Below are positions 7,887 through 46,956 of a DNA stretch of 64,000 nucleotides, in pieces. How positions within the stretch are numbered: position 1 is the stretch's first letter; each line of letters opens with the position of its first letter. The notes beneath the pieces were generated by a model. It saw only the letters and a program-made list of their open reading frames with translations. It ran no database searches and had not been told where the DNA came from. The position numbers and the translations under genes were made by a program. This stretch comes from Proteobacteria bacterium UBA664 (lineage in GTDB: Bacteria > Pseudomonadota > Gammaproteobacteria > UBA7966): contig DBNU01000061.1 of the NCBI GenBank assembly GCA_002299125.1, positions 514 through 64,513 on the forward strand, in the 5' to 3' direction.

Positions 7887-7961
7887 GCGACGCGGCGCGG
7901 CGCTCGCACGATTCCTGGGAGTCCGAGCCTGGGATGAGTTTCCGGAGGGCCTTGACCGAGG

Positions 7962-8526: not shown

Positions 8527-8825
8527 GGCATGCCCCTTACAGTAAGGATGGCATTACCGTATGGCAATCCTTTCACCGCCGCAAGCCGAAGGTCAAGACC
8601 GAGTGGTCGCGGTGGGAACGGAGTGCTCCCCGCCCGCCTCGACAGAGAGGCGTACGAGCGGCTCTAGCGCCTATCGAGGCCGATCACCCCTCTTCGCTCC
8701 CGCCAGCCGAGTTGAGGATGGCTTCGTCCATCTGCTCGAGGGTCACCGTCTGGGTGACACGGCCGGCGAAACGCCCCTTGAGGGCGCGCACGTCCCGGTG
8801 CAGAGGCACCAACTTGAAGCCGCCC

Positions 8826-13286: not shown

Positions 13287-14207
13287 TCAGCCTGCTCCCA
13301 GACGGGCGAGGGCCGCGGCCTCCAGCACGAACACCCCGTCACCACCGTTCTCGAACTCCACCCAGGTGACCGGCAGCCGCGGATAGCGGGCCTCGAAGCG
13401 ATCCATGCCGTCGCCCACCTCGCAGACCAGCAGGCCGCCCGCGGCCAGGCGCGTACGGCACTGATGCAGCAGACTATCGACCAGCGTGAGCCCATCCGCG
13501 CCACCGCCGTCGAGAGCAAGCCGGGGCTCGTGCCGGTACTCGGCCGGCAGATCATCCAGCTCGGTCGCCGGCACATAAGGCAGGTTGGCGACGACCACGT
13601 CCAGCCGCAGGCCTTCCGGCAGGGGATTCAGCAGATCGCCCTGCAGCAGCGTCACCTGGTTGGCGACGCCATGGCGCGCCACATTGCGCGCCGCCACCAC
13701 CAGCGCCTCCGGGGAGACATCCGTAGCAAACACGCGCACATCGGGCATGGCCAGCGCCGTCGCGATGGCGATGCAGCCAGAGCCGGTGCCCACATCCGCC
13801 ACGCTCCGCACGCGCTCCGGGTCGATCCAGGGATGGAAGCCCGCCTCGATGAGTTCACTCACCGGCGAGCGCGGGATGAGCGTGTGTCCGTTCACCTCGA
13901 AGGGCAGACCGCAGAACCAGGCCTCGCCGAACAGATAGGCCACCGGCAGACGTTCGCGGATGCGCCGCTCGGCCATGGCCTCGATGGCCTGCCGCTCGGC
14001 GGGGGTCACGTCGTGTTCACGCCAATCGCGATCGAAGGGTAGCCCGAGCGTGGCGAGTGCCAGATACCAGGCCTCGTCCTCGGCGTTGTCCGTGCCGTGC
14101 CCGTAGTGGAGTGACGCGGCCCGGAAACGGGCCACGAGCCCAAGCACCAGCTCCTCGAGGCGCAGGTGCGCGGCACGCGGGGTCGAATCGCCGCCGGGAT
14201 CGCTCAT
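13287..14207 (-). CDS. prmB: 50S ribosomal protein L3 N5-glutamine methyltransferase
   Basis: [11 protein letters not shown]...NLPYV (NPPY-like motif) matches the HemK/PrmB family. It is adjacent to aroC, as the E. coli prmB-aroC operon is. Confidence 0.8.
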
Positions 14208-15841: not shown

Positions 15842-15999
15842 CCGTGACTCCTCAGGCCGCATGCTCTGCTTCCGTTGGCTGGCCCGTCAGTGCCACGAGT
15901 GAACGAGGCCTGGCAGGCTGGATCCTGCGCCAGCCAGCGGTCGATTCAAGCCCCATCGGAGGTCTTCCCCCCAACCTCGCTGGTCGCAAGCGCCTGCTC

Positions 16000-18117: not shown

Positions 18118-20763
18118 ATGTCGCTTCACGCTCCGGACCCACCACCCGTCCACGACCCGGTTGGGAAGTCCGCCCACACGCCGATGATGCAGCAGTACCT
18201 GGCCATGAAGGCCGAATATCCGGACTGGCTGCTCTTCTACCGGATGGGCGACTTCTACGAACTGTTCTTCGAGGACGCGGCCCGGGCCGCGCGGCTGCTC
18301 GGCATCACCCTCACTACCCGCGGGGCCTCTGCCGGGGCGCCCATTCCGATGGCGGGGGTACCGGCCCATGCCGCCGATGGTTATCTCGCCCGACTCATCG
18401 AGTTGGGCGAGCCGGTGGTGGTCTGCGAGCAGGTGGGCGAGCCGGATGGGCGCGGCCCGGTCGAGCGGCGCATCACCCGGATCGTCACGCCCGGCACCCT
18501 CACCGATGACACCCTCCTCGATGCCCTGAGCGACCGCCCGTTGGCGGCACTCTGGCCCGTGGGGTCGCGCGCCGGTCTGGCGGTGCTCGATCTGGCGGCC
18601 GGGAGACTCAGCGCGCGCGAATGTGCCGACGGCGAGGCGCTGGAGACCGAGCTTGCACGGCTGCGGCCGGCCGAGATCCTGTTGCCGGAGAGTGCCCCCG
18701 ACGAAATGCTCTCGGCCTTGGCGCCTGGCGACGTGGCCCGGCGCCTGCGGCGGCGGGAATCCTTTGACGGCACCGACGCCCGGCGCGCCCTCGAACTGCA
18801 GTTCGGCACGGCCGAGGCCGCCCTGCTCGGCCTTGGCGACCGTCCGCTGGCGCTGGCGGCCGCCGCAGCGGCGCTCGCTTACGCGCAGGAGACCCAGCGC
18901 GGGCGCTTGCCCCACATCGAACATCTCGAGGCCGCGGCTGACGAGTCGCTGCTCGTCCTCGATGCCCAGGCGCGTCGCCAGCTCGAAGTGGATACGGCGC
19001 TCGTCGCAACGACCGGGCACTCGCTCTTCGCCGTACTCGACATCACCCGCACGGCGGCCGGTGCGCGCTGCCTGCGCCGCTGGCTGGCGCGGCCAACGCG
19101 CTCGCTGGAGGAACTCGCCCGCCGCCAGGACGCCATCGCCTGGCTGCTTGACACAGCGAATCTCGCCACGCTCACGGCCGAAGTGGCGGCGGTGGTGGAC
19201 CTCGAGCGCATCGTCACCCGGGTCTCCCTGCTGAGCGCTCGCCCGCGTGACCTCTACCGGCTGCGGACCGGCCTGCGTGCGCTCGCGCGCGTGGCCGCTG
19301 CTCTGCCCGTGCGTGGACTGCCCGGTGACCATCCCCTGGCAACACTCGCCGCCGCGCTGCCCCCGCCCGCGGCACTCAGCGAGCTGCTGGAACGTGCCAT
19401 TGGCGAGGGCCAGGTCGAACCATCATTCGAAACCGGTTTCTTCGCCACGGGCTTCGATGCCGAACTCGATCGCTTGCGCCTGCTTGCCTTCGACTCCGAC
19501 CAGGCCCTGCGGGCCCTGGAGGCCGCGGAGCGCGAACGCACCGGCATCGCCACGCTGCGGGTCGGCTACAACCGGGTGCACGGTTATTACATCGAACTGC
19601 CGCGCCGTCTGGCTGAGCGCGTGCCGGCACATTATCACCGCCGCCAGACGCTCAAACAGACCGAGCGCTACGCAACCCCCGAACTCGCAGAGTTCGAAAG
19701 TCGCGCACTCGCCGCCGGCGCCGGAGCACGGGCGCGCGAACGCACACTTTATCGCGGCCTGCTCGAAGCCGTCGACGCCGAACGTGCCGCCCTGCGCCGG
19801 GCGGCCGCGGCCAGCGCCGAACTCGACGTGCTGCTCGCCCTCACCGACCGCGCCCGTACCTTCGGCTGGACCCGGCCCACCTTCAGCGACCGGCCCGGGA
19901 TCCGCATCCGCGCGGGCCGTCATCCGGTGGTCGAGGCCGCCGGCGGTCACCCCTTCGTGCCCAACGATCTCGAGATCGGCTGCGAACAGCGGCTGCTGGT
20001 GCTGACCGGCCCGAACATGGGCGGCAAGTCCACCTACCTGCGCCAGGCGGGACTCATCGTGCTGCTCGCCCACATCGGCAGTTTCGTCCCCGCCACCGCC
20101 GCCACGATCGGTCCCGTGGACCGTATCTTCACCCGCATCGGCGCGGCCGACGACATCGCGGGTGGGCGCTCCACCTTCATGGTCGAGATGCACGAGAGCG
20201 CGCGGTTCCTGCGTCTCGCCGGTCCGGAGAGTCTGGTGCTGGTGGACGAGATCGGTCGCGGCACGAGCACCGCTGATGGCCTCGCGCTCGCGTGGGCGAT
20301 CGCCGAGCATCTGGCCCTGCACAACCGCGCCCTCGCCATCCTCTCCACGCACTATCTGGAGCTGACGGCGCTGGCCGACGCCCATCCGGCCATCTTGAAC
20401 CTGTGCACCGAGGTACTCGAGGATGGGGCGGAGGTGGTCTTCACCCATCGCGTGCTGCCCGGCGCTGCCGATCGCAGCCACGGTGTGCTGGTGGCGCGGC
20501 GCGCGGGCCTGCCGATGGCGGTCATCGAGCGCGCCTGCGACCGCCTCAGGCTGCACGAGGCGAGCACGGTGCCGTCACGGCCGGATGCGCCCGCACCAGG
20601 AACTGCGAAGGAGACTGAGGCGGCAACCACGGGATGGCTGGAAGCCGTGCATGCCCGGTTGCTCGCCATCGAGCCTGATCGCTGCGCCCCGCGCGATGCG
20701 CTGGCACTGCTCTACGATCTACACGCCATCATGCAGGGACGGGTACCGCCGTCAGAGGGCTGA
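18118..20763 (+). CDS. mutS: DNA mismatch repair protein MutS
   Basis: [35 protein letters not shown] matches the MutS N-terminus and is followed by the Walker [10 protein letters not shown]. It is divergent from htpG. Confidence 0.9.
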
Positions 20764-20981
20764 GCGGGTTCACCGCCCCGGCGGAACTCGTGTACCACAA
20801 CGCGCGCGAGGGCCGGATGACCCGGGGTTCCGGGGCGGGCGGCGAGGAGCGGGTCGTGAGTCTCCCTGGCACGCCCGTGCCAAGGCTGCGGCCATGACGT
20901 ATGATTACCAACCGGTGTTGGCGTGGGTCATCCACACACGCCGCCTTTCACGTTTTCCTGAACCAACGAGATTCCGCTGCC

Positions 20982-21305
20982 ATGGCGTTTGTGGTCACCG
21001 AGGCCTGTATCAAGTGCAAGTTCACCGACTGTGTCGAGGTGTGCCCGGTCGACTGCTTCCATGAAGGCCCCAACATGCTCGTCATCGACCCGGACGAGTG
21101 CATCGATTGCACCTTGTGTGAGCCCGAGTGCCCGGTCGAGGCCATCGTGTCCGAAGACGACGTCCCGAAGTCACAACAAGCCTTCATCGAACTGAACCGC
21201 GAACTCGCGAAGGCTTGGCCGGTGCTCAGCCACCGTAAGGAGCCCCTGCCCGAGGCCGAGGAATTCCGCAGTGTGAAAGACAAGTCGCATCTCATCGAGC
21301 GCTGA
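20982..21305 (+). CDS. fdxA: 7Fe ferredoxin (Azotobacter-type ferredoxin I)
   Basis: [51 protein letters not shown] gives the 3Fe-4S plus 4Fe-4S cysteine pattern of FdxA. It lies downstream of mutS, as in pseudomonads. Confidence 0.85.
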
Positions 21306-21442
21306 GGGCGGGCGGCGGCTCGGGTGGGTGCGGCCGACCACAGGCTGGCGGTAAGTGGAGCGTGGTGATTACGTAGACGGGGTGCCAATCCATTGGCCGG
21401 CGACCCGGCGGCGATACCGGTCAGGCGAGGGGGCTAGCGAAG

Positions 21443-23956
21443 GTGTCTCAAGGCATGAAGACCCCCTTCTGGAAATCCCAATGGTTTGCGACCGTCATTC
21501 TGGCTGTATTGCTGACGGCCTTCGCCCGGGACATCACCGACGCCCTCGACCGGGCTGCCTACGACCTCGGTGTACGTCACTCGGTACGTGAGCCCTCGCC
21601 CGACGTATCCGTCATCGCCATAGACGATCAGTCGATCGCCAACATCGGTCGCTGGCCATGGCCGCGCACCGTGCTGGCGGAGGTCATAGACCGGCTCGCC
21701 GAGGCGAAGGCAAAGGTGATTGCCCCGCTCATCTTCCTCTCCGAGCCGCAGGTCGATCCGGGCCTGCTTAAGCTGCGCGATCTGGCGCGCGAGTTCGCAC
21801 AGTTGGGGCTGCCCGGAGAGCCCGCTGCGGCCTTCGGTACGCGCCTGGGCGAGGCCGAGGCCGCACTGGACACCGACTCCCGCCTGGCTGCGGCGCTCAC
21901 CCGTGCACGGAACGTCATCCTGCCGATGCAGTTCGACAAGGGTGAGCCCCTCGGCAATCCGAGTGAGGCCCTCCCGGACACCGTTCTGGCAAACGCCCTC
22001 CCCACCGTGGTGGACGAGATCAGCGCACTCGAAACGCAGCAACTCCCCACCAGCACCATCCGCATCGAGCCCCCCATCCCGCTCCTGGCAGAAGCGGCGA
22101 CCGGACTCGGGGCCCTCATCTTCAATGTCGAACCCGACGGCGGTATCCGCAGTGACCCCTTGGTGGTCAGCTACTACGACCGCTACTTCCCCAGCCAGTC
22201 CCTGCTGGTGGCCGCGAGGAGTCTCAACCTGACATTGGCGGACATTCGCGTGCGGCTGGGCGAGGGCGTCCAGCTCGGGCGCCTGAACATCCCGACCGAC
22301 CCGGCACTGCAGATGCGCACCTTCTTCTACTCCCAACAGGGTGACCGCGCGCCCTTCAGCAAGGACAGCTTCTACGATGTCTACGCGGGCAAGGTGCCGC
22401 TCACGAAGTACGCCGGGAAGGTGGTCGTCATCGGGCCCACTGCCTTCGGCGTCGGGCAGGCCATCAAGACGCCGACCGACGAGGCCATGCAGCCGGTGGA
22501 GATCATGGCCCATCAGGTCTCGAGCATCCTGTCAGAGCATTTCTTCGTGGTTCCGGCCTGGGGCATGCCCGTCGAGATATTCGTGTGGCTTGCGGTTCTC
22601 GCCTATGTCGCATTCGCGCTGCCACGCCTGGGTGCCGGTCCCAGCGCCCTGCTGACCGCCATCCTCCTTATCGTATTGCTGGGCACGCAGCTCACGATGA
22701 TGACCACCCACGGCATGGCACTCCGTTTCATGGCCGCCATCGTGCTGCTCACAGCCGGCTATGTGATGGTCACGGTGCGCCGCTATCTGGTCACCGAGCG
22801 CGGCAAGCTACGCGCCGACAGCACGGCCGCCGAGGGCAATCGCATGCTGGCCATCCAGTTCCAGCAACAGGGTCAGCTCGATATGGCCTTTGACAAGCTG
22901 CGCGCCTGTCCGCTCGATGAAACACTGCTGGAGCCGCTCTACTCGCTGGCGCTCGATTTCGAGAACAAGCGCCACTGGGCCAAGGCGAACAGCGTCTACG
23001 AGTACATCGCACGGGCGGATCCAGGCTTTCGCGACATCAAGGATCGCAAGAAGCAGAACGAGGATCGTACCCAGTTCTTCGGTGCCTCCGGCGGCGGCGG
23101 CGCTACGGTGGCGCTCGGCCCGGGCTCGATGCTGGGGCGCTACCAGGTGGAGAAGGAACTCGGCAAGGGTGCCATGGGCGTCGTCTATCTGGGGCGGGAT
23201 CCCAAGATCAACCGCGTCGTCGCCATCAAGACGATGGCCCTGTCGCAGGAGTTCGAGGCGGATGAACTCGAAGAAGTGAAGTCGCGCTTCTTCCGCGAGG
23301 CCGAGACTGCCGGGCGCCTCACCCATCCCAACATCGTGACCATCTACGACGCCGGCGAGGAACACGACCTCGCCTACATCGCGATGGAGTTCCTGCAGGG
23401 GCACGACCTCACGCGCTACACCAAGGAGGGCGGCCTGCTTCCCGTCCCGGTGGTCATGGGCATCATCTACAAGGCGGCGCTTGCCCTGCACTACGCCCAC
23501 GGCAACAACGTCGTGCACCGCGATATCAAGCCCGCCAACATCATGTACGAACCGGAAGCCAAGAAGGTCAAGCTCACCGACTTCGGCATCGCCCGCATCA
23601 CGGACTCGAGCAGGACCAAGACCGGCATGGTGCTCGGCACACCGTCCTATATGTCGCCGGAGCAGCTCTCGGGCCGGAAGGTCGATGGTCGCTCGGACCT
23701 CTTCTCGCTGGGTGTGATGCTCTACCAGATGGTCACGGGCCGGCTGCCCTTCAAGGGCGAATCAATGGCCACGCTGATGTACAAGATCGCCAATGAGCCG
23801 CATGCAAGCGTTCTCGACGTCCGTCCGGAACTGCGCGAGCTCAAGCCCTGCCTGTCGGCGATCATCGACCGCGCCCTGAAGAAGGATGTCGATGCCCGCT
23901 ACCAGACGGGCGAGGACCTGGCGCGTGACCTGCAGGAATGCGCGCGCGCGCGCTGA
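21443..23956 (+). CDS. CHASE2 sensor domain-containing Hanks-type serine/threonine protein kinase
   Basis: The N-terminal roughly 400 aa are CHASE2-like (an N-terminal TM segment, a periplasmic region, then a cluster of TM helices). The C-terminal kinase carries GKGAMGVVY, VAIK, HRDIKPAN, DFG and SPEQ motifs. Confidence 0.8.
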   Translation: MSQGMKTPFWKSQWFATVILAVLLTAFARDITDALDRAAYDLGVRHSVREPSPDVSVIAIDDQSIANIGRWPWPRTVLAEVIDRLAEAKAKVIAPLIFLSEPQVDPGLLKLRDLAREFAQLGLPGEPAAAFGTRLGEAEAALDTDSRLAAALTRARNVILPMQFDKGEPLGNPSEALPDTVLANALPTVVDEISALETQQLPTSTIRIEPPIPLLAEAATGLGALIFNVEPDGGIRSDPLVVSYYDRYFPSQSLLVAARSLNLTLADIRVRLGEGVQLGRLNIPTDPALQMRTFFYSQQGDRAPFSKDSFYDVYAGKVPLTKYAGKVVVIGPTAFGVGQAIKTPTDEAMQPVEIMAHQVSSILSEHFFVVPAWGMPVEIFVWLAVLAYVAFALPRLGAGPSALLTAILLIVLLGTQLTMMTTHGMALRFMAAIVLLTAGYVMVTVRRYLVTERGKLRADSTAAEGNRMLAIQFQQQGQLDMAFDKLRACPLDETLLEPLYSLALDFENKRHWAKANSVYEYIARADPGFRDIKDRKKQNEDRTQFFGASGGGGATVALGPGSMLGRYQVEKELGKGAMGVVYLGRDPKINRVVAIKTMALSQEFEADELEEVKSRFFREAETAGRLTHPNIVTIYDAGEEHDLAYIAMEFLQGHDLTRYTKEGGLLPVPVVMGIIYKAALALHYAHGNNVVHRDIKPANIMYEPEAKKVKLTDFGIARITDSSRTKTGMVLGTPSYMSPEQLSGRKVDGRSDLFSLGVMLYQMVTGRLPFKGESMATLMYKIANEPHASVLDVRPELRELKPCLSAIIDRALKKDVDARYQTGEDLARDLQECARAR

Positions 23957-24005
23957 GGCTGGCTGCGGCCGGCGGGCGCAGACCCAACCCATGCGATCCG
24001 GCACG

Positions 24006-24815
24006 ATGAACACCACCCTCGAACTGGTCGGGCTGTCCGATACCGGCAGACGGCGCCCCCACAACGAAGACTCCACCGTCATCGACCCCGAGCTCGGATT
24101 GGCCGTGGTTGCGGATGGCATGGGTGGTTACAAGGCCGGCGAACTCGCGAGTGCCATCGCGGTGGTCACGATCTGGACCGAATTGCAGGCCGCCCTGCCA
24201 GGCCTGGCCCCCACCGACCGGAACAGCGAGAGCGGTCGGCTCAGCTTCGGCATCCTGCTGGAACGGGCCATCGACAAGGCCAACCGGCTCATCCATGAAA
24301 CCCAGGAGCGGGAGCAGGAGACCCGCGGCATGGGCACGACGGTGGCCTGCCTGCTCGCCCGTGGCGACCGCCTGGTCATCGCCCACGTGGGTGATTCGCG
24401 CGTCTACCGGCTGCGGGGCGAAGCCCTCGAACGGGTGACCAACGACCACTCGCTCATCCAGGAACTCATCGATCGAGGCTTCTACACCCCGGAAGAGGCA
24501 GCCGAGAACGCACCGAAGAACCTCGTTACGCGCGCACTCGGCATAGAATCCTCAGTGGAGGTGACGATGCGCGAGGAGGCCTGCGTCCCGGGGGAGATGT
24601 TTCTTCTGTGCTCGGACGGCCTCAATGATATGGTTTCCGATGAAGAAATCCGTCTAACCCTGTGTAAGGCTGGCGCTAATCTGCTTGATGCCGCGCGGGA
24701 TTTGGTTAGACTGGCAAACGAAGGTGGTGGGCGCGACAACGTCTCCGTGGTGCTCTGTCGAGTTGGCGGGCACACTGCTCGTCGCGACAGGCCCGATGGG
24801 GTAGTCGCTCGATGA
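24006..24815 (+). CDS. PP2C-family serine/threonine phosphatase (Stp1-like)
   Basis: VADGMGGYKAGELAS...CSDGLNDMV are PPM motifs. The start was set at MNTTLELVGLSD within ORF 23886..24815. Confidence 0.8.
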   Translation: MNTTLELVGLSDTGRRRPHNEDSTVIDPELGLAVVADGMGGYKAGELASAIAVVTIWTELQAALPGLAPTDRNSESGRLSFGILLERAIDKANRLIHETQEREQETRGMGTTVACLLARGDRLVIAHVGDSRVYRLRGEALERVTNDHSLIQELIDRGFYTPEEAAENAPKNLVTRALGIESSVEVTMREEACVPGEMFLLCSDGLNDMVSDEEIRLTLCKAGANLLDAARDLVRLANEGGGRDNVSVVLCRVGGHTARRDRPDGVVAR

Positions 24816-24863
24816 GGGCAGGTTCACCCGAAGGGTGGGGCTCTGCAGAGGTCAGGGGCAACG

Positions 24864-25601
24864 ATGGCTAAGCTAGTCCTCAGTCTCAACGGCACCGTCC
24901 AATCCGAGCACCTGCTCGGCAAGGAACGCATCACCATCGGTCGCAAGCCCGACAACGACGTCCAGATCGATAATCTGGCCGTCAGCGGCAAGCACGCACT
25001 GGTTATAACCATCCTCGACGACTCCTTTCTCGAGGATTTGGGCAGCACCAACGGCACCTACGTCAACGGCAAGCTGATCAAGAAGCACGCGCTGCGTAAC
25101 GGCGACGTCATCGGGATCGGCAAGCACGAACTCAAGTACATCAACGAAGCGGCGACCGCGACCGAGGACGACGACTTCGAGGCCACCATCGTCATTCCGC
25201 CGCGCAATGCCTCGGCGGCGCGCGAGGCAGCCCAGGCTGCGGCCCAACAAGGTGCCAGTGCTGCGGGTATCAGCTCTGCAGCGCGGAGTGCAGCCGGGAT
25301 CCCGCCCGTTGCAGCCGCTGCGGGTATGCCCCTCGGGCGCCTGCGGGTCCTGAATGGACCCATCGCCGGGCGCGAGCTCGAACTCACCAAGGCCCTCATC
25401 ACCCTCGGCAAACCGGGCGTGCAGGTGGCCGTGATTTCGCGGCGGCCGCAAGGCTATGTGCTGACACACATCGAGGGCGGCACACCCAACAATTTCCCGA
25501 TCGTGAACGGGCAGCCCATCGGGCCGAATGCCTACCCGCTCAAGGATTCGGACATCATCGAGCTGGCCGGCATCAAGATGGAGTTCTTCCTCTCGCGTTG
25601 A
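24864..25601 (+). CDS. FHA domain-containing protein (two FHA-like domains)
   Basis: The N-terminal FHA is ITIGRKPDNDVQID...GSTNGTYVNG. The C-terminal half is a second FHA-like fold (RVLNGPIAGRELEL...VNGQPIG). The two are separated by an Ala-rich linker. Confidence 0.75.
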   Translation: MAKLVLSLNGTVQSEHLLGKERITIGRKPDNDVQIDNLAVSGKHALVITILDDSFLEDLGSTNGTYVNGKLIKKHALRNGDVIGIGKHELKYINEAATATEDDDFEATIVIPPRNASAAREAAQAAAQQGASAAGISSAARSAAGIPPVAAAAGMPLGRLRVLNGPIAGRELELTKALITLGKPGVQVAVISRRPQGYVLTHIEGGTPNNFPIVNGQPIGPNAYPLKDSDIIELAGIKMEFFLSR

Positions 25602-25668
25602 GGTGTGGTTGCCTCGTCACAGCCGGCTGGATCACGGTCGACCTGCCTGATGGCCATCCCCGCGCCGA

Positions 25669-27930
25669 TCACTTCGTCTTGAAGGCGAAGACCCCGGTCC
25701 AGTCCTGACCAGGCGGATTTTGCCGCAACCATGCGCAACGCTCGGCGTACTTCCGGTAAAGCCCCGGATTCTTCGTCTGTTTGACGAGCGTCAGGAACTG
25801 CATCTCGGCCAGGTCCCAATTGCGGTTCCGGTAGTACTCGAGGCCCTGTCGATACACCTTGAGTTCATCCTTGAGCTCCTTCGTGAGTTCCCCCGTGCGG
25901 CAGAGCGGCTCATGAATGGTGACCGACTGCTCCTTGCCCTTCACCTTGACGAGATCGAGCTCCCGGTAAATGAATCCCGGTGCCGCCTTGCGGGTGCTCT
26001 CACTCACGATGATGGAAACGCCGTATTCCTTGGTTAGGCCTTCGAGCCGCGATCCCAGGTTGACCGCGTCACCGAGCACCGTGTAGGCCATGCGAAACTC
26101 GGAGCCCATGTTGCCAACGGACATCTGACCGGTATTGAGTCCGACGCCGATGGAGATCGCCGGCAGCCCCCTGGCGGTGAATTCCGCGGAAAGCTGCTCT
26201 GCACGCCGCACCATCTCCAGTGCCGTCTGCACCGCATGGGTCGCGTGGTCGGGGTCGTCGACCGGAGCACCCCAGAAGGCCATCACGGCATCGCCCATGT
26301 ATTTATCGATGGTGCCGCGATTGGCGTGGATGATGCGCGTCATGGGCGTCAGGAAATCATTGATGAGGCGCGCGAGCTTTGGTGGCGACAGCCCCTCCGA
26401 GATGGAAGTGAAACCGCGAACGTCGGAGAAGAGCACGGTCAGCTCGCGCGATTCCGCTTCCAGGGAGTAGTTCTCCGGGGCACGGGACATCTCATCCACC
26501 AGTTCGGGTGGCACGTACTGGCCGAAGAGGTTGGTGAGCTGGCGCTTGCCCCGGGTCTCCAGGAAGTAGCCATAGGACATCTGCAACACGAACTGCAACG
26601 TCATCATGGCGAGCGGTGATGCGAGCGGCAGCACGAGGCCGTTGCTCCACACCAGGAGGTTGGTGGCAGTGAGCAGCAGCGTGGCGCCGGCATAGGTGGC
26701 CGTCGCCTGTATCGGACTCACCAGGGGCAGGACCAGCGCCAGCAGCAGCCCGGCGAGGGCGAGCATCACCGCCTCGGCACCCAGTACGTAGGCGGGCCGG
26801 GCCTTGATGGCCCCGTCGAGGATGCCGGTGATGAGGTTCGCATGCACCTCGACCCCCGGATAGTTTTCCTGCACGGGCGTTGCCCGCAGGTCGAAAAGGC
26901 CCGGTGCCGTGGTGCCCACCAGCACGATGCGATCGCGCATGAGAGCGGGCGGAAGATCCGCCGCACCCCGCAGCACGTCCGTGGCCGAGACGTAAGTGAA
27001 GCCACCCTGCCGGCTGCGGTAGGGGATGAGGGCCTGGACGTTCTCGTCCACCGGAATGCGATGAGCACCGATCTCCAGCCACTCCAGGCCTGCGTAGGTC
27101 CGACTTGCCCCCCACGGGGCATCCTCGAAGTGCAGGCGGAGTTCCTCGACTCCGAGTGCCGCCTTGGCGATGGCGATGCTGAGGGACTCGTAGTAGTTGC
27201 CCGCGTACTCGTAGAGCATCGGTACCCGGCGTACGATGCCGTCGATGTCCAGTACCGGATTGAAGTGCCCTGCGCCCCGGGCAGCTTGCTGGAAGGCCTC
27301 GAGATTCGCCCCGAAGCCCTGGGCGCGAGCGACGTTCACCCGGCGGCCCTGAAAGCTGCCGGCCACCAGTGTGGGCCGGGGCAGCACGCCCGAGCGCGTG
27401 GCTTCCTCCCGCGCGACCTCCGCGTTGAAGTAGTAGCCGAGCACCACCGGGTAGCGGGCGATGGTGCTGGCGAACAGTCGATCGTGGTCGAGGCTGGGGC
27501 GCAGTAACTCGAGTTGCTCCTTGAATGCCGCATTCCCCGCCAGTTCGTTCCGGGCGAGGCGTTCGAGTTGCGGCAGACCTGAACTCGTATCGGGCTCGGC
27601 AAAGACGATATCGAAGCCGAGCACTGCCGCGCCGTGCACATCGAAGATCCGCTGCACAAGTTCGGCAAGGGTGTCCCGACTCCAGGGCCAGCGGCCTTCC
27701 CGGGCCAGGGAGCGCTCGTCGATGTCCACGATGACGACCCGCGGATCGGTGCCTGACTGCAGACCCGCGAGCACGCGCCAGTCGTAGGTGATGAGTTCCA
27801 GGCGGTCGATGAGGCCCACCTGGACGTAACCGGCCGCGCGCGCGATGGCGAACAGGACGATGACGAGTGACAGGGACACGGGCAGCCAGCGCTCGGCGAG
27901 ACGCTCGCACAGCCGCTCCATCAATCCCAT
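25669..27930 (-). CDS. CHASE2 domain-containing class III adenylate/guanylate cyclase
   Basis: The N-terminus is CHASE2-like (the similar GRWPWSR motif appears in the adjacent CHASE2 kinase). The C-terminal cyclase catalytic domain carries FSDVRGFT, KYMGDAVMAFWGAP and GLNTG. Confidence 0.8.
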   Translation of the reverse strand: MGLMERLCERLAERWLPVSLSLVIVLFAIARAAGYVQVGLIDRLELITYDWRVLAGLQSGTDPRVVIVDIDERSLAREGRWPWSRDTLAELVQRIFDVHGAAVLGFDIVFAEPDTSSGLPQLERLARNELAGNAAFKEQLELLRPSLDHDRLFASTIARYPVVLGYYFNAEVAREEATRSGVLPRPTLVAGSFQGRRVNVARAQGFGANLEAFQQAARGAGHFNPVLDIDGIVRRVPMLYEYAGNYYESLSIAIAKAALGVEELRLHFEDAPWGASRTYAGLEWLEIGAHRIPVDENVQALIPYRSRQGGFTYVSATDVLRGAADLPPALMRDRIVLVGTTAPGLFDLRATPVQENYPGVEVHANLITGILDGAIKARPAYVLGAEAVMLALAGLLLALVLPLVSPIQATATYAGATLLLTATNLLVWSNGLVLPLASPLAMMTLQFVLQMSYGYFLETRGKRQLTNLFGQYVPPELVDEMSRAPENYSLEAESRELTVLFSDVRGFTSISEGLSPPKLARLINDFLTPMTRIIHANRGTIDKYMGDAVMAFWGAPVDDPDHATHAVQTALEMVRRAEQLSAEFTARGLPAISIGVGLNTGQMSVGNMGSEFRMAYTVLGDAVNLGSRLEGLTKEYGVSIIVSESTRKAAPGFIYRELDLVKVKGKEQSVTIHEPLCRTGELTKELKDELKVYRQGLEYYRNRNWDLAEMQFLTLVKQTKNPGLYRKYAERCAWLRQNPPGQDWTGVFAFKTK

Positions 27931-28004
27931 CGCTCATACCTCACTATCTGAGCCGCGCCTGCGAGGCCAATCGCCCAGTGCGCCTTGCGGACCACGCGTC
28001 GCAC

Positions 28005-28637
28005 TCAGGGCAGCAGGTCCCCGGTGATGATGCCGGCCCGTAGCTCACGCGCCACATCGTTCCATACTTTATCGAACGAATCCGCGAAAGCTTGCACAAC
28101 CGCCTCCACCGAGGCCCCCACCACGACGGGCTGTAACACCTCGAAGCGATGCTGCAGGCGCGCTGCATCCTCCCCAGCCTGTCCCGCCTGAAGATCGATG
28201 GCGACGTGTACCCGGGGCTCGCCGGATCCCACCTCGTGCTCCATGCGCACGATGCGCCCCCGCAGCCAGATCCCGCTGCCGGCCGGGGTGTGATCGGCAG
28301 CAGTGACCTTCCCGGCGATGCCGTGGACGCGCAACCAGTCGGCGAGGTGCTGCTGGAGCAGGCGCGGCGGGGGGTCCACCCAGAAGTGATAGTGCGATTG
28401 CTGCAGGGTCAGATGCGGGGCCGCGGGCGAATAGACGATGGCGCGATCCTGGCGCAGATCATCCGCCTTGAAGGGCAGAACAACGATCTGCGCGATGATC
28501 GGTACGGCGGTCGCCCGGTCGGTTACCGGCAACGGGAGTTGATGGTACTGGGTCTCCGGTACGGGAGGGGCCGTGCCACACGCGCCGAGTGCAACCACAG
28601 TGACCAGAGCGACCGCCCGCCAGAAATGACGCCTCAT
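28005..28637 (-). CDS. ABC-type transport auxiliary lipoprotein (PqiC/YmbA-like, DUF330)
   Basis: It has a signal peptide with lipobox (VALGAC) and is about 210 aa. It sits immediately downstream of the MCE gene with a 4 nt overlap, as pqiC/ymbA-type genes do. Confidence 0.6.
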   Translation of the reverse strand: MRRHFWRAVALVTVVALGACGTAPPVPETQYHQLPLPVTDRATAVPIIAQIVVLPFKADDLRQDRAIVYSPAAPHLTLQQSHYHFWVDPPPRLLQQHLADWLRVHGIAGKVTAADHTPAGSGIWLRGRIVRMEHEVGSGEPRVHVAIDLQAGQAGEDAARLQHRFEVLQPVVVGASVEAVVQAFADSFDKVWNDVARELRAGIITGDLLP

Positions 28638-29653
28638 GGGACGGCACCCTCTGCCCCCCGGGCCGGCCGACTGAACAGTAGCCCGGGCCGCTCGCGCAAC
28701 TGCCTGGAGAACTCGTTCAGGTTGCGGGCCGAACCATCCAGGTTGTGCATGATGGTCCCCATCCGCTCGGCCAGGGTGCCCGATGCCCGCTCGAGCTGGC
28801 CACTTGCCCGGGCCAGACCCGACACCGAAACAGCCACTTCACCACGATTCTCGGCCAGCAGGCCGTGGACATCGCGCAGCACGTCATCCACACCCGCGCG
28901 CGTGGTCGAAAGCTCGGCCGTGAGCTGGTTGAGCCGACCCGAGGTCTGCTCCAGGTGGCTGAGGGCGCGCGTCACGCGCTGCACGTTGGCCGGGTCGAGC
29001 ACTTGCTCCAGCCCGTCGGCCGCCTCGTGCAGGCTCTGCAGCAGCGCCGTGGAGCCCGCGAGCATTTCGCCCAATTGATCGATGCGCGAGCGGCTGCCTG
29101 CGAGCAATGGCCGCAGCTCATCGCGGGACAGTGTCGTCAGTTCCTCGACCAGGGTGCTCAGTTGCTCACGCACGGTGTCCAGCGCCGGGCGGATGCCCTC
29201 GCGCGCGAGCGAGCGGAGCTCCGCGGCTGCCTCGTCGACCACCGCGAAGAGGTTCGCCCGCTCGCGGCCCGGGAGTTCGGCACCGGGGCGCGCGAGGCTC
29301 GTTGCGCTGCCCTCCTCGATCGCGACCGACAGCGCGGCGACGAGGCCGCTGGAGGCGAGGCGCGCGACACTGTCACTGGGTATGGGCCAGTCACTGCGCA
29401 CGGCCAGATGCACCCGGAAGGCCACGTCGCCGGGTGAGAACAGCGGTTCGATGTGACTCACCCGGCCGACCGGGAAACCCTCGAAACTCACCACGGCACC
29501 GTCGCCGAGGCCGCTGACGTCCTGGTAGACCACGCTGTAATGGGTAGTCGGCCCGCTCGCACCCGTCAGCCGATCAAGCACGTACAGCGCCGTTGCCAGC
29601 ATGGCGAGCACGAAGGAGCCGACCAGCAAGTAGTTGACGCGCTCGGATCTCAT
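28634..29653 (-). CDS. MlaD/MCE family protein (outer membrane lipid asymmetry maintenance-like substrate-binding subunit) with extended C-terminal helical region
   Basis: An N-terminal TM anchor and MCE domain (VNYLLVGSFVLAMLATALYVL...YQDVSGLGDGAVVSFEGFPVGRV) are followed by a long Leu/Ala/Arg-rich region. The start was set at MRSERVNYLL; the alternatives are 29671 and 29725. Confidence 0.75.
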   Translation of the reverse strand: MRSERVNYLLVGSFVLAMLATALYVLDRLTGASGPTTHYSVVYQDVSGLGDGAVVSFEGFPVGRVSHIEPLFSPGDVAFRVHLAVRSDWPIPSDSVARLASSGLVAALSVAIEEGSATSLARPGAELPGRERANLFAVVDEAAAELRSLAREGIRPALDTVREQLSTLVEELTTLSRDELRPLLAGSRSRIDQLGEMLAGSTALLQSLHEAADGLEQVLDPANVQRVTRALSHLEQTSGRLNQLTAELSTTRAGVDDVLRDVHGLLAENRGEVAVSVSGLARASGQLERASGTLAERMGTIMHNLDGSARNLNEFSRQLRERPGLLFSRPARGAEGAVP

Positions 29654-29769
29654 CGCCTGATGGTAGGCCATCCGCCCCAGCGGCTTAAGGGCAATTGGCA
29701 GCCACACGCCGATCGGACCGCGCACGGCAAGCCTGCGCTCGGCCCGGATGCAACACCGTCGAAGGACGC

Positions 29770-30600
29770 TCAGGCACGCGTCAGCCGGTCGAGGTAGGCC
29801 TCGGGATCGAAATCCGGAACGCTTGGCTGACGATTGAGCAAGGCCTGGACCCGCGGACTCTGGCTGGCACGCACCTCGGCCACCGTCCCCGTCGCCACGA
29901 TGCGGCCGCCGTCGAGCACGATGAGACGATCCGCGATCGTGAGGGCGCTCTCGATCTCGTGGGTCACGACCACGATGCTCATGTGCATGGCGTCGCGGAG
30001 CTGCAGGATCAGTCGATCGAGTTCGGCCGCGACCACCGGATCCAGGCCCGCACTCGGCTCATCGAAGAAGAGCAGTGGCGGGTCCATCACCACCGCCCGA
30101 GCAATGGCGGCCCGCTTGACCATGCCTCCGGAGAGCTCGGCCGGCAGCAGATCCTCACTACCGGCAAGGTTCACCACCTCGAGCTTGAGTCTGGCCATGA
30201 TGTGCATGGTCGCGGGCGCGAGGCGGGTGTGCTCCTGCAGGGGCAGGATCACGTTCTCCAGCACCGTGAGCGAACTGAACAGCGCCCCGCCCTGGAAGGC
30301 CACCCCCATGTGTCGGCGCAGGCGGTGCATGGCGCGTGCGCTGGCCGTGCGCAAGTCGGTGCCGAGTACTTCCACCCGGCCGGCGGTCGGCCGCGCAAGC
30401 CCCACGAGGTGGCGCAGCAAGGTGCTCTTGCCCGAGCCGCTGCCGCCCATGATGACGACGATTTCACCCGACCCCACCTGCAGGCTGATGTCATGCAGCA
30501 CCTGCCGCTCGCCCCAGTGCGCAGCAAGCCCTTCGACCGCGATCACCGTACTGCCCGGCACCAGCCGGTGCGCGTCGTCCCGGTCGAACAGTCCGCTCAT
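29770..30600 (-). CDS. ABC transporter ATP-binding protein (MlaF-like)
   Basis: It has Walker A (GGSGSGKST), the ABC signature (LSGGMVKRAA) and Walker B (LLFFDEP). The start is at the internal ATG (MSGLFDRDD). Confidence 0.85.
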   Translation of the reverse strand: MSGLFDRDDAHRLVPGSTVIAVEGLAAHWGERQVLHDISLQVGSGEIVVIMGGSGSGKSTLLRHLVGLARPTAGRVEVLGTDLRTASARAMHRLRRHMGVAFQGGALFSSLTVLENVILPLQEHTRLAPATMHIMARLKLEVVNLAGSEDLLPAELSGGMVKRAAIARAVVMDPPLLFFDEPSAGLDPVVAAELDRLILQLRDAMHMSIVVVTHEIESALTIADRLIVLDGGRIVATGTVAEVRASQSPRVQALLNRQPSVPDFDPEAYLDRLTRA

Positions 30601-31394
30601 CACCCCGGACGGCTCATGAGCCAGGTGAAGATCATGTCGGCCACCACGATGTAGGACAGGCTCTGCACCACGGCCCGGGTCGTGGCACGCCCGACCCCAT
30701 CGGCCCCGCCGGTCACGGCAAAGCCGTTGCTCACGCCCACCAGCGCGATGATGATGCCGAAGGTCAAGCCCTTGCCCAGCCCCTGCAGGACATCCGCCAC
30801 CTGCAGGATGGCGAAGGTCTGGGCGATGAAGGCCTCGAAGGACAACCCCAGCACCTGGTTGCAGTACACCGCCGAACCGGCCAGGGCAGCGACACTGGAC
30901 AGCACCGTCAGACACGGCACCATCACGATGGCCGCCACCAGTGGCGGTGCCACCAGATGCCGCACCGGACTGATGCCCATCACGGCCAGTGCGTCCACCT
31001 CCTGCGAGATCTGCATGGCACTGATGCGCGCGGCGAGAGCAGATCCGGAACGACCGGCCACCATGATGCCGCTGATGAGTGCACCGAATTCACGCGTGAT
31101 CGACAGCACCAGGGCCATGACCACCTGGGATTCGGCGCCGAAGGCCTTGAGCGAATACACGCCCTGGATGGCGAGCATCACGCCGACGGAGAAGGACAGC
31201 ACACTCAGGATCGGCACGGCGGCGAGGCCGATCGCCACCAGCTCGTTCAGGATGAGTCGCGCATGCACCGGCTGTCGCAGGAAGGGCCCGAAGAGGAGCC
31301 ACCACAGCGACTCGACCAACAGGCTCGCGCAATAGCCGATCTCCTCGACCAGCACCCGGGCGAGCGACGGCCGCGGGGCGCCGCTGCGTGACAT
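30600..31394 (-). CDS. ABC transporter permease (MlaE-like)
   Basis: About 264 aa with multiple TM segments. The length and the MlaE-like conserved core (…GALISGIMVAGRSGSALAARISAMQISQEVDAL…) match MlaE. The alternative start is 31424. Confidence 0.8.
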   Translation of the reverse strand: MSRSGAPRPSLARVLVEEIGYCASLLVESLWWLLFGPFLRQPVHARLILNELVAIGLAAVPILSVLSFSVGVMLAIQGVYSLKAFGAESQVVMALVLSITREFGALISGIMVAGRSGSALAARISAMQISQEVDALAVMGISPVRHLVAPPLVAAIVMVPCLTVLSSVAALAGSAVYCNQVLGLSFEAFIAQTFAILQVADVLQGLGKGLTFGIIIALVGVSNGFAVTGGADGVGRATTRAVVQSLSYIVVADMIFTWLMSRPG

Positions 31395-31407
31395 GAACGG
31401 ACGGGCT

Positions 31408-31731
31408 TCAACCCTTGCCATCACTGCCGGTTGCGATCGGAAATACCCGATCCAGGCGCGCCAGCCGGAGCACGCTCAAGGCCGCCTCGCTCACCTCCGT
31501 GAGTTGGAAGTCTAGGCCGAGCTTGCGGGCAAGCTGGTAGGCCTCCACGAGGCTTGCGACACCCGAGCTGTCAATGTAGCTGACGGCCGCCATGCGCACA
31601 CTGACCGCGTGTCCTGCCCGGAGCTGCGCGAGCAGCGCGCTGCGCACGGTCTGGGAGCAGGAGAGGTCGATGTCTCCCTCCAGCGCGACGGTGGCGTGAT
31701 CCTCGACCAGGGTGGTCTGCGGTGTCGTCAT
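31408..31731 (-). CDS. STAS domain protein (anti-sigma factor antagonist, RsbV/SpoIIAA-like)
   Basis: The 107 aa product has the STAS pattern (VALEGDIDLSCSQTVRSAL...VSYIDSSGVASLVEA) and a conserved phosphorylatable Ser region (DSSG). It overlaps the upstream kinase by 4 nt. Confidence 0.7.
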   Translation of the reverse strand: MTTPQTTLVEDHATVALEGDIDLSCSQTVRSALLAQLRAGHAVSVRMAAVSYIDSSGVASLVEAYQLARKLGLDFQLTEVSEAALSVLRLARLDRVFPIATGSDGKG

Positions 31732-32180
31732 CGAGCGTCCCCCACCGGTTGCGCCGCGCCGCGCAGCCGCTTCAGCATGCGCAGCCAATTGCCATTCCCG
31801 CCTGCGCTGTGGCCGTAGCAGGACTCGTCCATCAAGGTGCGGATGAAATGGGTGCCCAGCCCACCCGGGCGGAGGTCATCGAGGGCCCGCGGACAGATGC
31901 GACTGAAATCCACCGGCGGCGCGAAGTCCTCCAGCAGCACTTCGATGCAGCCCGCATTATTTCCGATGTGCAGAACGATTTCACCGTCGTCGCAACCGGC
32001 GTAGGCATGCTGGATGACGTTCATGCAGGCCTCGTTGACGGCCAGGACGATGTCGGCGGCCTCGTCCTCAGCACAACCCAGCCCCAGCGTCGCAGACCGC
32101 ACGTGGGCGCGGATGGTGCGGAGGTTCTCCGGGCAGGCCTTCATGCGCCAGCTCGACACGGTCGGGGTGGACAGGCTCAT
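31728..32180 (-). CDS. anti-sigma regulatory factor serine protein kinase (RsbW/SpoIIAB-like HATPase_c)
   Basis: About 150 aa with an N-box (EACMNVIQHA) and a G-box (PGGLGTHFIRTLMDE). It is flanked by a PP2C phosphatase and a STAS protein, each with a 4 nt overlap. Confidence 0.75.
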   Translation of the reverse strand: MSLSTPTVSSWRMKACPENLRTIRAHVRSATLGLGCAEDEAADIVLAVNEACMNVIQHAYAGCDDGEIVLHIGNNAGCIEVLLEDFAPPVDFSRICPRALDDLRPGGLGTHFIRTLMDESCYGHSAGGNGNWLRMLKRLRGAAQPVGDAR

Positions 32181-33445
32181 CGGGGTGCCTCGAGCACGAG
32201 CACCGTGAGGTCGTCGCTCCAGTACGCCCCATTGTTGCGCAGGCATTCCACCAGTCGCGGCAATCGCAATCCAAGTGGCTCGGCCGCGACCAGCTCGAGC
32301 CAATGCGAAAGCCCATCGAGCCCCAGCGGTCGCCCCTTCAACCGGGCTTCGAGCAGGCCGTCGCTGTAGAGGTAGAGCGCCCCATCCGCGAGCGCGAGCT
32401 GTCGGGTCGGACAAGCGAGATCCGGCTCGATGCCGAGCGGCGGCGCGTCGCATTCCAGCACCTCCCAGGCCCCCGAGCGACGGTGCAGCAGGGCCGGTGG
32501 ATGGCCGGCGTTCGCCAGCCTCACCTCGCCGCTCTGCAGATCGAGCAGGCCGACCACGACGGTCACGAACATGCCCCGCGTGGCCGTCTGGAAGATCTCG
32601 CGGTTGACCCGCGCGAGCAGTTCCGAGGGGTCATCGATGCTACGGGCGAGACAGCGCAGGAGCCCGCAGGTCTGGGCCATCAACAGCGCGGCGTTCATGC
32701 CCTTGCCAGAGACATCCCCGATGCTGAAATAGCAGTGGTGCGCGCCGACCGGCTGGAAATCGAAGAAGTCCCCGGAGACGCCATCGGCCGCGAGGTTGAG
32801 TCCGGCGACCGGCAGACCGGTATCCGGATCGGGCAGGAGCCGCTCCTGGATCTCGCGGGCCAGATGCAGCTCGCGCCGAATGCGGTCGCGCTCCACCAGC
32901 GCGACGGTGGTGCGCGCATTGCGCACCGCCATGGCCGCAGCCGAGGCGAACATGCTGAGGAGATATTGATCGCGACTGCCGAAGAGCCCATCCGCGCTGC
33001 GCTTGTTGATGCACTCGACCGCACCGAGACATTCGTCCGCCAGCAGCAGCGGGGCACAGAGCAGCGAGCGGGTCTCGAAGCCCGTGCCGGCATCCACGGA
33101 GGCGGCGAAATCGGGATGTGCGCGCACATCCCGCACCATGAGGCAGCTCTTCTCCCGGACCGCGCGCCCGACGATGCCGTACCGTGCATCGATGCGCAGC
33201 CCCCGGATATCGACCGGGCCGACACAATCGCGACAGCGCAGGATGCGATCATCATCCTCGAGGAAGAAGATCGACGCCGCCTCGGCATCCAGGTGCGCCG
33301 CAATCCGCAGCAGCGCCGTGCGCAGCGTGGCGTCGAGATTGAGCGTACGGGCGAAACCGTCGGCCAGCTCGGCGAACAGCGCCGCCTGCGCCTCCAGCTC
33401 GGTCGCCCGCGCCGCCACCGGCGGTGCTTCGATCTCGCCATCCAT
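32177..33445 (-). CDS. GAF domain-containing PP2C/SpoIIE-type serine phosphatase (RsbU-like)
   Basis: An N-terminal GAF-like region is followed by a C-terminal SpoIIE/PP2C domain (GDVSGKGMNAALLMAQ...LYSDGL). The start is at the internal ATG (MDGEIEAPP). Confidence 0.8.
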   Translation of the reverse strand: MDGEIEAPPVAARATELEAQAALFAELADGFARTLNLDATLRTALLRIAAHLDAEAASIFFLEDDDRILRCRDCVGPVDIRGLRIDARYGIVGRAVREKSCLMVRDVRAHPDFAASVDAGTGFETRSLLCAPLLLADECLGAVECINKRSADGLFGSRDQYLLSMFASAAAMAVRNARTTVALVERDRIRRELHLAREIQERLLPDPDTGLPVAGLNLAADGVSGDFFDFQPVGAHHCYFSIGDVSGKGMNAALLMAQTCGLLRCLARSIDDPSELLARVNREIFQTATRGMFVTVVVGLLDLQSGEVRLANAGHPPALLHRRSGAWEVLECDAPPLGIEPDLACPTRQLALADGALYLYSDGLLEARLKGRPLGLDGLSHWLELVAAEPLGLRLPRLVECLRNNGAYWSDDLTVLVLEAPR

Positions 33446-33553
33446 CCACAGTCCTCCGCGCGGGCCGGGCACCACCACATGCAGGCCCGGACGGCCCGCA
33501 GCCGTTGAAGTTGAGCGTAGCCCGGGCCGAGGGCACCCGCGCGGCATCCCCTC

Positions 33554-39079: not shown

Positions 39080-39083
39080 CGGT

Positions 39084-45204: not shown

Positions 45205-45213
45205 GTGGCGGCT

Positions 45214-45456: not shown

Positions 45457-45459
45457 GGC

Positions 45460-46932: not shown

Positions 46933-46956
46933 CGGCTCACCTCTGCTTCCTCGTCT

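Follow-up and report, generated by a model that had tools for sequence, protein, structure and literature searches.

Linked genes for a CHASE2 receptor kinase with its PP2C phosphatase and FHA adaptor and for a CHASE2 receptor cyclase in Beta- and Gammaproteobacteria

Two receptors with CHASE2 sensor domains are encoded side by side in the stretch of DNA analyzed here, a window of 64,000 nucleotides on contig DBNU01000061.1 of the gammaproteobacterium UBA664. Four genes were confirmed at positions 21455-27930 of this window: one for a Hanks-type serine/threonine kinase with a CHASE2 domain, one for a PP2C phosphatase of the Stp1 type, one for a protein of 245 residues with an FHA domain and, convergent to these three, one for a CHASE2 protein with a class III nucleotide cyclase domain (Table 1). 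The G+C content of the window is about 67%, and numerous open reading frames in it are therefore spurious; the four in 21443-27930 are real genes. An identical metagenome contig from the Joint Genome Institute (JGI) carries the same genes with called products of 833, 269, 245 and 753 residues, and these gene calls set the start of the kinase at the ATG at 21455 and that of the phosphatase at 24006. A protein starting at the GTG at 21443 had no match in an exact look-up, the recorded start being the ATG; the longest reading frame of the phosphatase begins at 23886, where the public gene call has 24006 instead. The original prediction, an annotation made from the letters of the DNA, had thus located the four genes correctly, whereas its starts for kinase and phosphatase were shifted and the GAF-HD-GYP gene at 14204-15862, discussed below, was left out. 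The intergenic gaps are 49, 48 and 67 bp. The last of these is the convergent one between the FHA gene and the cyclase gene, and no hairpin was found when it was searched for one.

Table 1. Features of the window discussed in the text (positions in nucleotides of the window)
Feature	Position	Strand	Basis or remark
CHASE2 receptor Ser/Thr kinase, 833 residues	21455..23956	+	Pfam CHASE2 and Pkinase; gene call on identical contig
Kinase CHASE2 domain, contains GRWPWPR (residues 65-71)	21497..22603	+	Pfam PF05226, E=7.9e-46
Hanks-type kinase catalytic domain	23141..23908	+	Pfam PF00069, E=3.2e-56
PP2C-type Ser/Thr phosphatase, 269 residues, Stp1/IreP family	24006..24815	+	Pfam PP2C_2, E=8.6e-17; NF033484
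Cytoplasmic adaptor, 245 residues: canonical FHA, conserved linker site, variable Ala-rich linker, second FHA-fold domain	24864..25601	+	
Canonical FHA domain, residues 23-86	24930..25121	+	Pfam PF00498, E=1.9e-23
Thr108 codon in linker motif D-F-E-x-T-x-x-I-x-P	25185..25187	+	candidate phospho-acceptor
Second FHA-fold domain, residues 155-245	25326..25598	+	hhalign, AlphaFold2, Foldseek
CHASE2 receptor adenylate cyclase (predicted), 753 residues	25669..27930	-	Pfam CHASE2 and Guanylate_cyc
Class III nucleotide cyclase catalytic domain	25918..26451	-	Pfam PF00211 Guanylate_cyc, E=8.6e-22
Cyclase CHASE2 domain, contains GRWPWSR (residues 79-85)	26740..27858	-	Pfam PF05226, E=3.2e-63
GAF-HD-GYP phosphodiesterase (predicted), 552 residues	14204..15862	-	ortholog of last gene of the betaproteobacterial operon
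Mla-like genes (MlaE, ABC ATPase, MlaD, lipoprotein)	28005-31424	-	
STAS protein	31408-31788	-	partner-switching set
RsbW-like kinase	within 31728-32453	-	partner-switching set
GAF-SpoIIE phosphatase	32177-33547	-	partner-switching set
PLD_Helicase	36329-39079	-	PADLOC
Candidate PDC-M28C	39084-40505	-	PADLOC
PDC-M28B, ParA-like	40477-41895	-	PADLOC
DUF1156 methyltransferase	42247-45204	-	PADLOC
DUF3780	46957-47661	-	PADLOC
DUF499 ATPase	47713-51207	-	PADLOC

The kinase consists of an N-terminal transmembrane segment, the periplasmic CHASE2 domain, three further transmembrane segments, a conserved TPR-like juxtamembrane segment and the Hanks kinase domain. Its topology was taken from a simple hydropathy scan, not from a dedicated topology predictor; the scan gave one N-terminal segment, then a loop and then three scored segments ahead of the output domain. 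The glycine-rich loop (GKGAMG) is present, as are the motifs VAIK, HRDIKPAN, DFG and SPE, and all of these are kept in 80 orthologs. Full-length homologs of this architecture, 55-60% identical, number in the thousands in Gamma- and Betaproteobacteria, several of them being named "CHASE2 domain-containing serine/threonine-protein kinase" at NCBI. CHASE2 kinases have also been listed in cyanobacteria (PMC2176072). NCBIfam has no dedicated family for the kinase, the adaptor or the cyclase. The phosphatase encoded next to the kinase passes the NCBIfam model for Stp1/IreP (NF033484) with 232.6 bits at a cut-off of 230, and its metal-binding Asp motifs RPHNED, DGMGG, GDSR, DGLND and RDN are present.

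The second CHASE2 protein is indeed, as had been proposed, a fusion with a class III cyclase. The order of its parts is a transmembrane segment, the periplasmic CHASE2 domain, three transmembrane segments, a class IIIb catalytic domain and a conserved C-terminal helical tail; cytoplasmic linker and tail are conserved among 51 orthologs. Here the hydropathy scan gave an N-terminal segment, the loop and two scored segments, to which a third at about 408-428 was added by eye. Both receptors are accordingly read as having one plus three transmembrane segments (one of those in the cyclase by eye) around a CHASE2 loop of 335-350 residues, which places CHASE2 outside and the output domain in the cytoplasm. 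Pfam scores of 157.1 bits for the kinase and 214.1 bits for the cyclase (cut-off 26.3) identify both N-terminal regions as CHASE2 domains, in agreement with the original prediction.

The original prediction left open whether the cyclase makes cyclic AMP (cAMP) or cyclic GMP (cGMP). The solved structures closest to its catalytic domain are those of Cya2 (2w01; engineered form 6fht), Pseudomonas aeruginosa CyaB (3r5g) and Spirulina CyaC (1wc0). The metal-binding Asp residues lie in FSDVRGFT and MGDAVM, the Lys in DKYMGD, the Thr in AYTVLGDAVN and the Asn/Arg pair in VNLGSR; aligned to Cya2 and CyaB, D503, D547, K543, T617, N624 and R628 are at the expected positions. In the substrate-defining pair the cyclase of the window has Lys/Thr, as CyaB does, whereas the guanylate-specific Cya2 has Glu/Gly. 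The prediction is therefore a class IIIb adenylate cyclase, with cAMP as its product and not cGMP. On these residues the class III assignment and the adenylate half of the earlier wording stand, the latter as a prediction, and the guanylate half falls. CyaC, likewise of class IIIb, also has Lys and Thr at these positions. CyaB has a MASE2 sensor, and CyaC has receiver and histidine kinase-like domains; the enzyme described here shares the Lys/Thr pair, the metal-binding Asp and the Asn/Arg residues with CyaB and differs from both in its CHASE2 sensor.

The third protein of the kinase strand is a small cytoplasmic adaptor. The phospho-threonine-binding residues of its N-terminal FHA domain are intact, with G26 R27, S41 H44 and N63 invariant in the orthologs. 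Behind this domain follows a linker motif whose T108, I111 and P113 do not vary among 24 homologs, and the motif is kept in 67 orthologs from genome loci. It is of the classic pT-x-x-I type of FHA ligand, and Thr108 is therefore a candidate both for a phospho-acceptor and for a ligand of the FHA domain. No other protein of the cluster is as conserved as the adaptor: its full-length homologs are 70-75% identical to the protein of the window (kinase 55-60%, phosphatase 41-62%). Some of its orthologs carry the JGI name "predicted component of type VI protein secretion system"; the NCBIfam model TagH scores 44.9 bits with the adaptor, below the cut-off of 120.25.

The C-terminal domain of the adaptor is as conserved as the N-terminal FHA domain. 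Pfam finds a single FHA domain in the protein and has no FHA match for the C-terminal part, and a plain BLASTP comparison of the two halves is marginal (E=0.008). When its profile was aligned by hhalign to that of the N-terminal FHA domain, however, the probability was 94.6% (E=7e-8), and an AlphaFold2 model of the C-terminal domain alone (pLDDT 88, pTM 0.79) found as its best PDB matches in Foldseek the FHA domains of GarA, OdhI, Ki67, FhaA and DgcB, with TM-scores of 0.72-0.78. A model of the full-length adaptor was too uncertain (mean pLDDT 61), a fold search with it cannot assign the matching domain, and it was not used. In all orthologs a Lys (Lys183) takes the place of the phosphate-binding Arg; the profile alignment has a deletion where the Ser-x-x-His segment should be, and the strand in question, beta-4, is absent from the model. 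Judged from alignment and model, the domain has the FHA fold, and binding of phospho-threonine by it is doubtful. Thus the description as a two-FHA phospho-threonine reader was overstated: the fold occurs twice, but the second copy lacks the Arg and the Ser-x-x-His loop and is negative in Pfam.

An FHA domain with a phospho-threonine site close by is known from several switches. M. tuberculosis Rv1747 has a tandem-FHA regulatory module, and DgcB of Bdellovibrio is a diguanylate cyclase. The FHA domain of DgcB binds the enzyme's own phosphorylated N-terminal peptide (PDB titles 6hc0, 6hc1, 6hbz). Like GarA/OdhI and DgcB, the adaptor combines an FHA domain with a nearby candidate phospho-acceptor Thr in a switch-type layout. 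It differs from these in being a separate protein, in having the acceptor site after the FHA domain and in its second fold without the Ser-x-x-His loop.

To see whether the four genes occur together elsewhere, we scanned one genome per GTDB species and took as loci the best 80 of more than 588 matches, most of them in metagenome-assembled genomes (MAGs); L numbers in the following denote single loci. Neighbors were counted by tblastn with the proteins of the window in those 60 loci whose sequence extends 5.5 kb or more beyond the kinase gene on its downstream side. The phosphatase adjoins the kinase ortholog in 60/60 and the FHA protein in 58/60 of these loci, so that kinase, phosphatase and FHA genes form one cassette, as had been proposed. 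The CHASE2 cyclase is found beside it in 48/60, on the strand of the kinase in 36 and convergent as in the window in 12. The four genes are therefore co-conserved across related genomes. The arrangement had been regarded as uncommon; this view has to be given up, for the cluster is widespread and conserved in Beta- and Gammaproteobacteria.

The convergent form was seen only in gammaproteobacterial MAGs, most of which also have mutS-fdxA upstream. The same-strand form occurs in Rhodocyclaceae, Gallionellaceae, Sulfuritalea, Sterolibacterium, Methyloversatilis, Ca. Propionivibrio and other Burkholderiales, with different flanks. As the flanks differ, mutS-fdxA in the one class and other genes in the other, it is the cluster itself that has been kept and not merely local synteny. 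In a reciprocal test we started from cyclase orthologs of at least 47% identity in metagenome contigs. Around these, the FHA gene was found in 25/34 and the kinase gene in 15/22 cases, a phosphodiesterase of the class II type in 23/29 and a GAF-T2SSE ATPase in 13/17; below 47% identity the linkage fades. The convergent layout of the window is a derived state of the co-directional operon, in which the cyclase gene was inverted. One locus with the layout mutS-fdxA-kinase-PP2C-FHA-cyclase-Mla of the uncultured gammaproteobacterial MAGs is titled "MAG: Klebsiella pneumoniae isolate MaH-04nov19-186" (L013). Its proteins are 55-70% identical to those of the window, and the organism label looks wrong (mis-binning or mislabelling).

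The motif GRWPW(P/S)R, which the original prediction had noted in both receptors, is GRWPWPR in the kinase and GRWPWSR in the cyclase and is invariant or nearly so in both sets of orthologs. It is a hallmark of the whole Pfam CHASE2 family and no special tie between these two proteins. The two CHASE2 domains of the window are 27% identical over about 390 residues (E=2e-23). In a comparison of 52 genomes carrying both genes, the window included, the identity was 54% among the kinase CHASE2 domains, 53% among the cyclase CHASE2 domains and 25% between kinase and cyclase. Pairs from the same genome (24.9%) did not differ from pairs across genomes (25.1%), which rules out a recent tandem duplication, and in a neighbor-joining tree the kinase domains and the cyclase domains fell into two cleanly separated clades. 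This indicates that the two sensors are old paralogs inherited together; the local duplication that the phylogeny had been meant to detect did not take place. The pairwise distances of kinase and cyclase are congruent over the 52 genomes (r=0.81), a value reached by 0/999 Mantel permutations.

When the flanking open reading frames of the 80 loci were clustered, the same-strand operon of the Betaproteobacteria, in which the four core genes are co-directional, was seen to continue behind the cyclase. The next gene encodes a metallo-beta-lactamase-fold protein of 255 residues that matches class II cAMP phosphodiesterases (PDEase_II). Further members are a protein with a domain binding cyclic nucleoside monophosphates (cNMP) and a rhodanese domain (about 19 loci), a GAF-MshEN-T2SSE ATPase (37 loci) and, as the last gene, a GAF-HD/HD_5 protein, i. 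e. a GAF-HD-GYP protein (40 loci). Median intergenic gaps are 7-89 bp in the same-strand operons and 2-89 bp for the genes of this continuation; between phosphodiesterase and ATPase the median is 137 bp when the optional cNMP gene is spanned. By eye, the MshEN region of the ATPase showed no obvious match to a motif binding cyclic di-GMP (c-di-GMP), and it plays no part in our argument.

In the lineage of the window only the GAF-HD-GYP gene of this extension remains nearby. It is found upstream of the kinase gene, separated from it by 5.6 kb that hold htpG, mutS and fdxA, and the layout of L009 is identical; orthologs are found within 10 kb of the kinase gene in 43/80 loci. Full-length comparison of the protein with the operon gene of L069 gives 53% identity; it matches Pfam GAF and HD/HD_5, and its motifs HDCGK and HHERMDGSGYP are intact. 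The best PDB match is PmGH (4mcw, E=8.5e-30), and the GAF domain resembles the cNMP-binding GAF domains of PDE5, CyaB2, PDE2A and PDE10A. In Tlr0485, another GAF-HD-GYP enzyme, cAMP at the GAF domain is required for hydrolysis of c-di-GMP (preprint 10.1101/2021.11.05.467447). The protein of the window shares with PmGH and Tlr0485 the GAF and HD-GYP domains with intact HD and HHExxDGxGYP motifs; unlike in these, an insertion of about 110 residues separates the HD part of its HD-GYP domain from the GYP part. A widespread insertion in HD-GYP domains that come after GAF domains has been described in a paper on Leptospira (PMC12943098). In several gammaproteobacterial relatives prmC and htpG appear to be adjacent, with no HD-GYP match between them, and in the window and in L009 the gene may thus be an insertion at this place.

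Variants of the gene set were observed as well. Methylophilaceae and relatives (L014, L028, L029, L033, L056, L081) have the genes for kinase, phosphatase and FHA protein followed by the GAF-HD-GYP gene, with no cyclase. Going by this order, it may be the HD-GYP enzyme and not the cyclase that constantly accompanies the kinase branch. In an Ectothiorhodospiraceae MAG (L007) a gene for a class-II-type phosphodiesterase stands at 4312-5208 between the FHA gene and the inverted cyclase gene, on the strand of the latter, so that cyclase and phosphodiesterase appear to have been inverted together. In three MAGs of Gammaproteobacteria or Pseudomonadota (L019, L030, L064) the cNMP-binding/rhodanese and GAF-HD-GYP genes lie immediately upstream of the kinase gene, at about 7000-9870, the HD-GYP gene being in divergent orientation to the kinase gene, and the set thus occurs in a third arrangement.

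Modules of Hanks kinase, PP2C phosphatase and FHA protein are known from P. aeruginosa, where PpkA-PppA-Fha1 belongs to type VI secretion, and from mycobacteria, where PknB-PstP occurs with FhaA/FhaB. As in these, a membrane kinase with an extracytoplasmic sensor, a PP2C phosphatase and an FHA reader are encoded together in the window, with their motifs intact. The differences are the CHASE2 sensor, the lack of linked secretion or cell-wall genes, the make-up of the adaptor (FHA domain, T-x-x-I linker and truncated FHA fold) and the neighborhood of cyclic-nucleotide enzymes. CHASE2 cyclases in turn drive cAMP signaling in S. meliloti, where CyaD1, CyaD2 and CyaK respond to a plant protein via the outer-membrane protein NsrA and the Crp-like regulator Clr takes part (PMC13001267). 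The cyclase of the window has the same combination of CHASE2 receptor and class III cyclase; unlike the S. meliloti enzymes it is linked to the kinase/PP2C/FHA cassette and to a GAF-HD-GYP gene, and NsrA and Clr were not seen here.

From the domains, catalytic motifs and topology that were observed, together with the paralogy and linkage of the genes, we consider the four genes to be the core of a conserved signaling cluster in which two receptor branches act on the same cyclic-nucleotide network, a reading to which we give a probability of roughly 0.55. In the first branch, the periplasmic CHASE2 domain of the kinase would sense a cue, and the Stp1-type phosphatase and the small FHA adaptor would complete the branch. 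The second would consist of the anciently paralogous CHASE2 domain fused to the class IIIb adenylate cyclase. Input at this CHASE2 domain would make the cyclase produce cAMP, which could be read by the GAF or cNMP-binding proteins of the cluster; a candidate is the HD-GYP enzyme, which in the cAMP-bound form would hydrolyze c-di-GMP. The kinase, for its part, would phosphorylate itself and the linker Thr of the adaptor, the FHA domain would bind the phospho-threonine, the second domain of the adaptor would then alter the activity of a cyclic-nucleotide component, either the cyclase or the HD-GYP enzyme, and the phosphatase would reset the system.

Several observations weigh against this reading. 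In the window the cyclase gene is on the opposite strand and hence not co-transcribed with the kinase gene. It lies 74 bp downstream of a string of Mla-like transporter genes and may be the last gene of that minus-strand string. A scan of 20700-28700 for promoters and terminators gave counts equal to the shuffled expectation with none above background, and transcription units therefore cannot be judged from it. In 12 of the 60 loci, i. e. one in five, no cyclase stands beside the cassette, and the gene order of the Methylophilaceae, from FHA directly to GAF-HD-GYP, means that the kinase branch can do without the cyclase. The phosphodiesterase, cNMP-binding/rhodanese and GAF-T2SSE ATPase genes of the extension were searched for in the 64-kb window and none was found. 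Moreover, our percentages come from the best-matching 80 loci and describe the orthologous clade, not CHASE2 kinases as a whole. Finally, what points to a coupling of threonine phosphorylation to cAMP and c-di-GMP signaling is gene linkage, and such a coupling is accordingly worded here as a suggestion.

If the branches are coupled, they could form a single integrated device. In such a device phospho-threonine would gate, via the tandem FHA adaptor, the synthesis of cAMP and/or the cAMP-dependent hydrolysis of c-di-GMP. We propose this stricter form tentatively.

In the original prediction the two receptors were seen as duplicated CHASE2 sensors of one signal with two outputs. Both domains carry the motif of the family and the two genes are co-inherited, which would fit. 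Yet at 25% identity, with no excess in same-genome pairs and with two old clades, there is no sign of recent duplication or gene conversion, and the ligand specificities have had ample time to diverge. No CHASE2 ligand is on record by which this could be judged, the signals recognized by CHASE2 having been reported as unknown in 2016 (PMC5192318). A common signal is thus possible, but we would not expect it.

A further alternative is that two independent systems stand side by side, with different cues and unrelated targets, and that their synteny is inherited without any coupling. The convergent genes with their separate transcription in the window, the loci without a cyclase and the low identity of the CHASE2 domains would all be explained in this way, and congruent trees are expected of any vertically inherited pair of genes. 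However, adjacency has been held across two proteobacterial classes despite differing flanks, on the same strand and with short gaps in 36 loci; the linkage is recovered from the side of the cyclase as well, and the operon runs on into more cyclic-nucleotide genes. We therefore regard independence as unlikely. If it were true after all, the locus would consist of two ordinary receptors of known types.

Coupling could also take place at the membrane, in a heteromeric CHASE2 receptor complex in which the cyclase is a direct substrate of the kinase and, once phosphorylated, is bound by the FHA adaptor, so that cAMP synthesis is switched. Co-conservation, congruent divergence, the common reading of one plus three transmembrane segments in the hydropathy scan (one cyclase segment by eye) and the conserved cytoplasmic linker and tail of the cyclase are compatible with such a complex. 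Class III cyclases and Hanks kinases, however, are normally homodimers. Judged by conservation among orthologs, the cytoplasmic portion of the cyclase showed no conserved T-x-x-I/L site, the adaptor itself having one, and Methylophilaceae retain the kinase cassette without the cyclase. A heteromeric receptor thus seems rather improbable to us.

That the kinase/PP2C/FHA cassette controls not cyclic nucleotides but a secretion or envelope machine, be it type VI secretion, as the JGI name of some FHA orthologs and the sub-threshold TagH match might suggest, or the Mla-like transporter, whose genes adjoin the cyclase in the window and in gammaproteobacterial relatives, is very improbable, because no type VI genes were found among the scanned open reading frames of the window or in the conserved flanks of the 80 loci, TagH stays far under its cut-off, betaproteobacterial loci keep the cluster without Mla-like genes, and the conserved partners are cyclic-nucleotide enzymes.

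As to the surroundings of the cluster, the Mla-like genes together with the cyclase are syntenic in seven loci (L003, L005, L006, L007, L009, L013, L068). Directly upstream of the Mla-like genes and on the same minus strand lies a partner-switching set, the whole region extending over 28005-33547. Farther away, at 36329-51207, PADLOC models identify a minus-strand defence island, within which the G+C content falls to 0.615-0.656 over 40-48 kb.

Every protein family of the cluster is already known, and so are the architectures of CHASE2 kinase and CHASE2 cyclase. What appears to be new is the conserved combination of the genes, not any single part: in the searchable literature, outside of which most subscription journals lie, we found no paper on a cluster of kinase, PP2C, tandem FHA protein and CHASE2 cyclase with its extension. 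To our knowledge, the targets of the eukaryote-like Ser/Thr kinases of Proteobacteria are mostly not known. CHASE2 is a widespread bacterial sensor domain, and a cluster that is present in dozens of species-level genomes offers candidate substrates as well as readouts, namely cAMP, c-di-GMP and the equivalent of Thr108 in the adaptor. It is a well supported lead from comparative genomics by which CHASE2 signaling and the targets of proteobacterial Ser/Thr kinases become testable, the function given here being a prediction. An integrated device, if it exists, would provide an experimental handle on the signals of CHASE2 receptors. If the coupling is true, phospho-threonine, cAMP and c-di-GMP signaling would be joined in a hard-wired three-way crosstalk across Beta- and Gammaproteobacteria.

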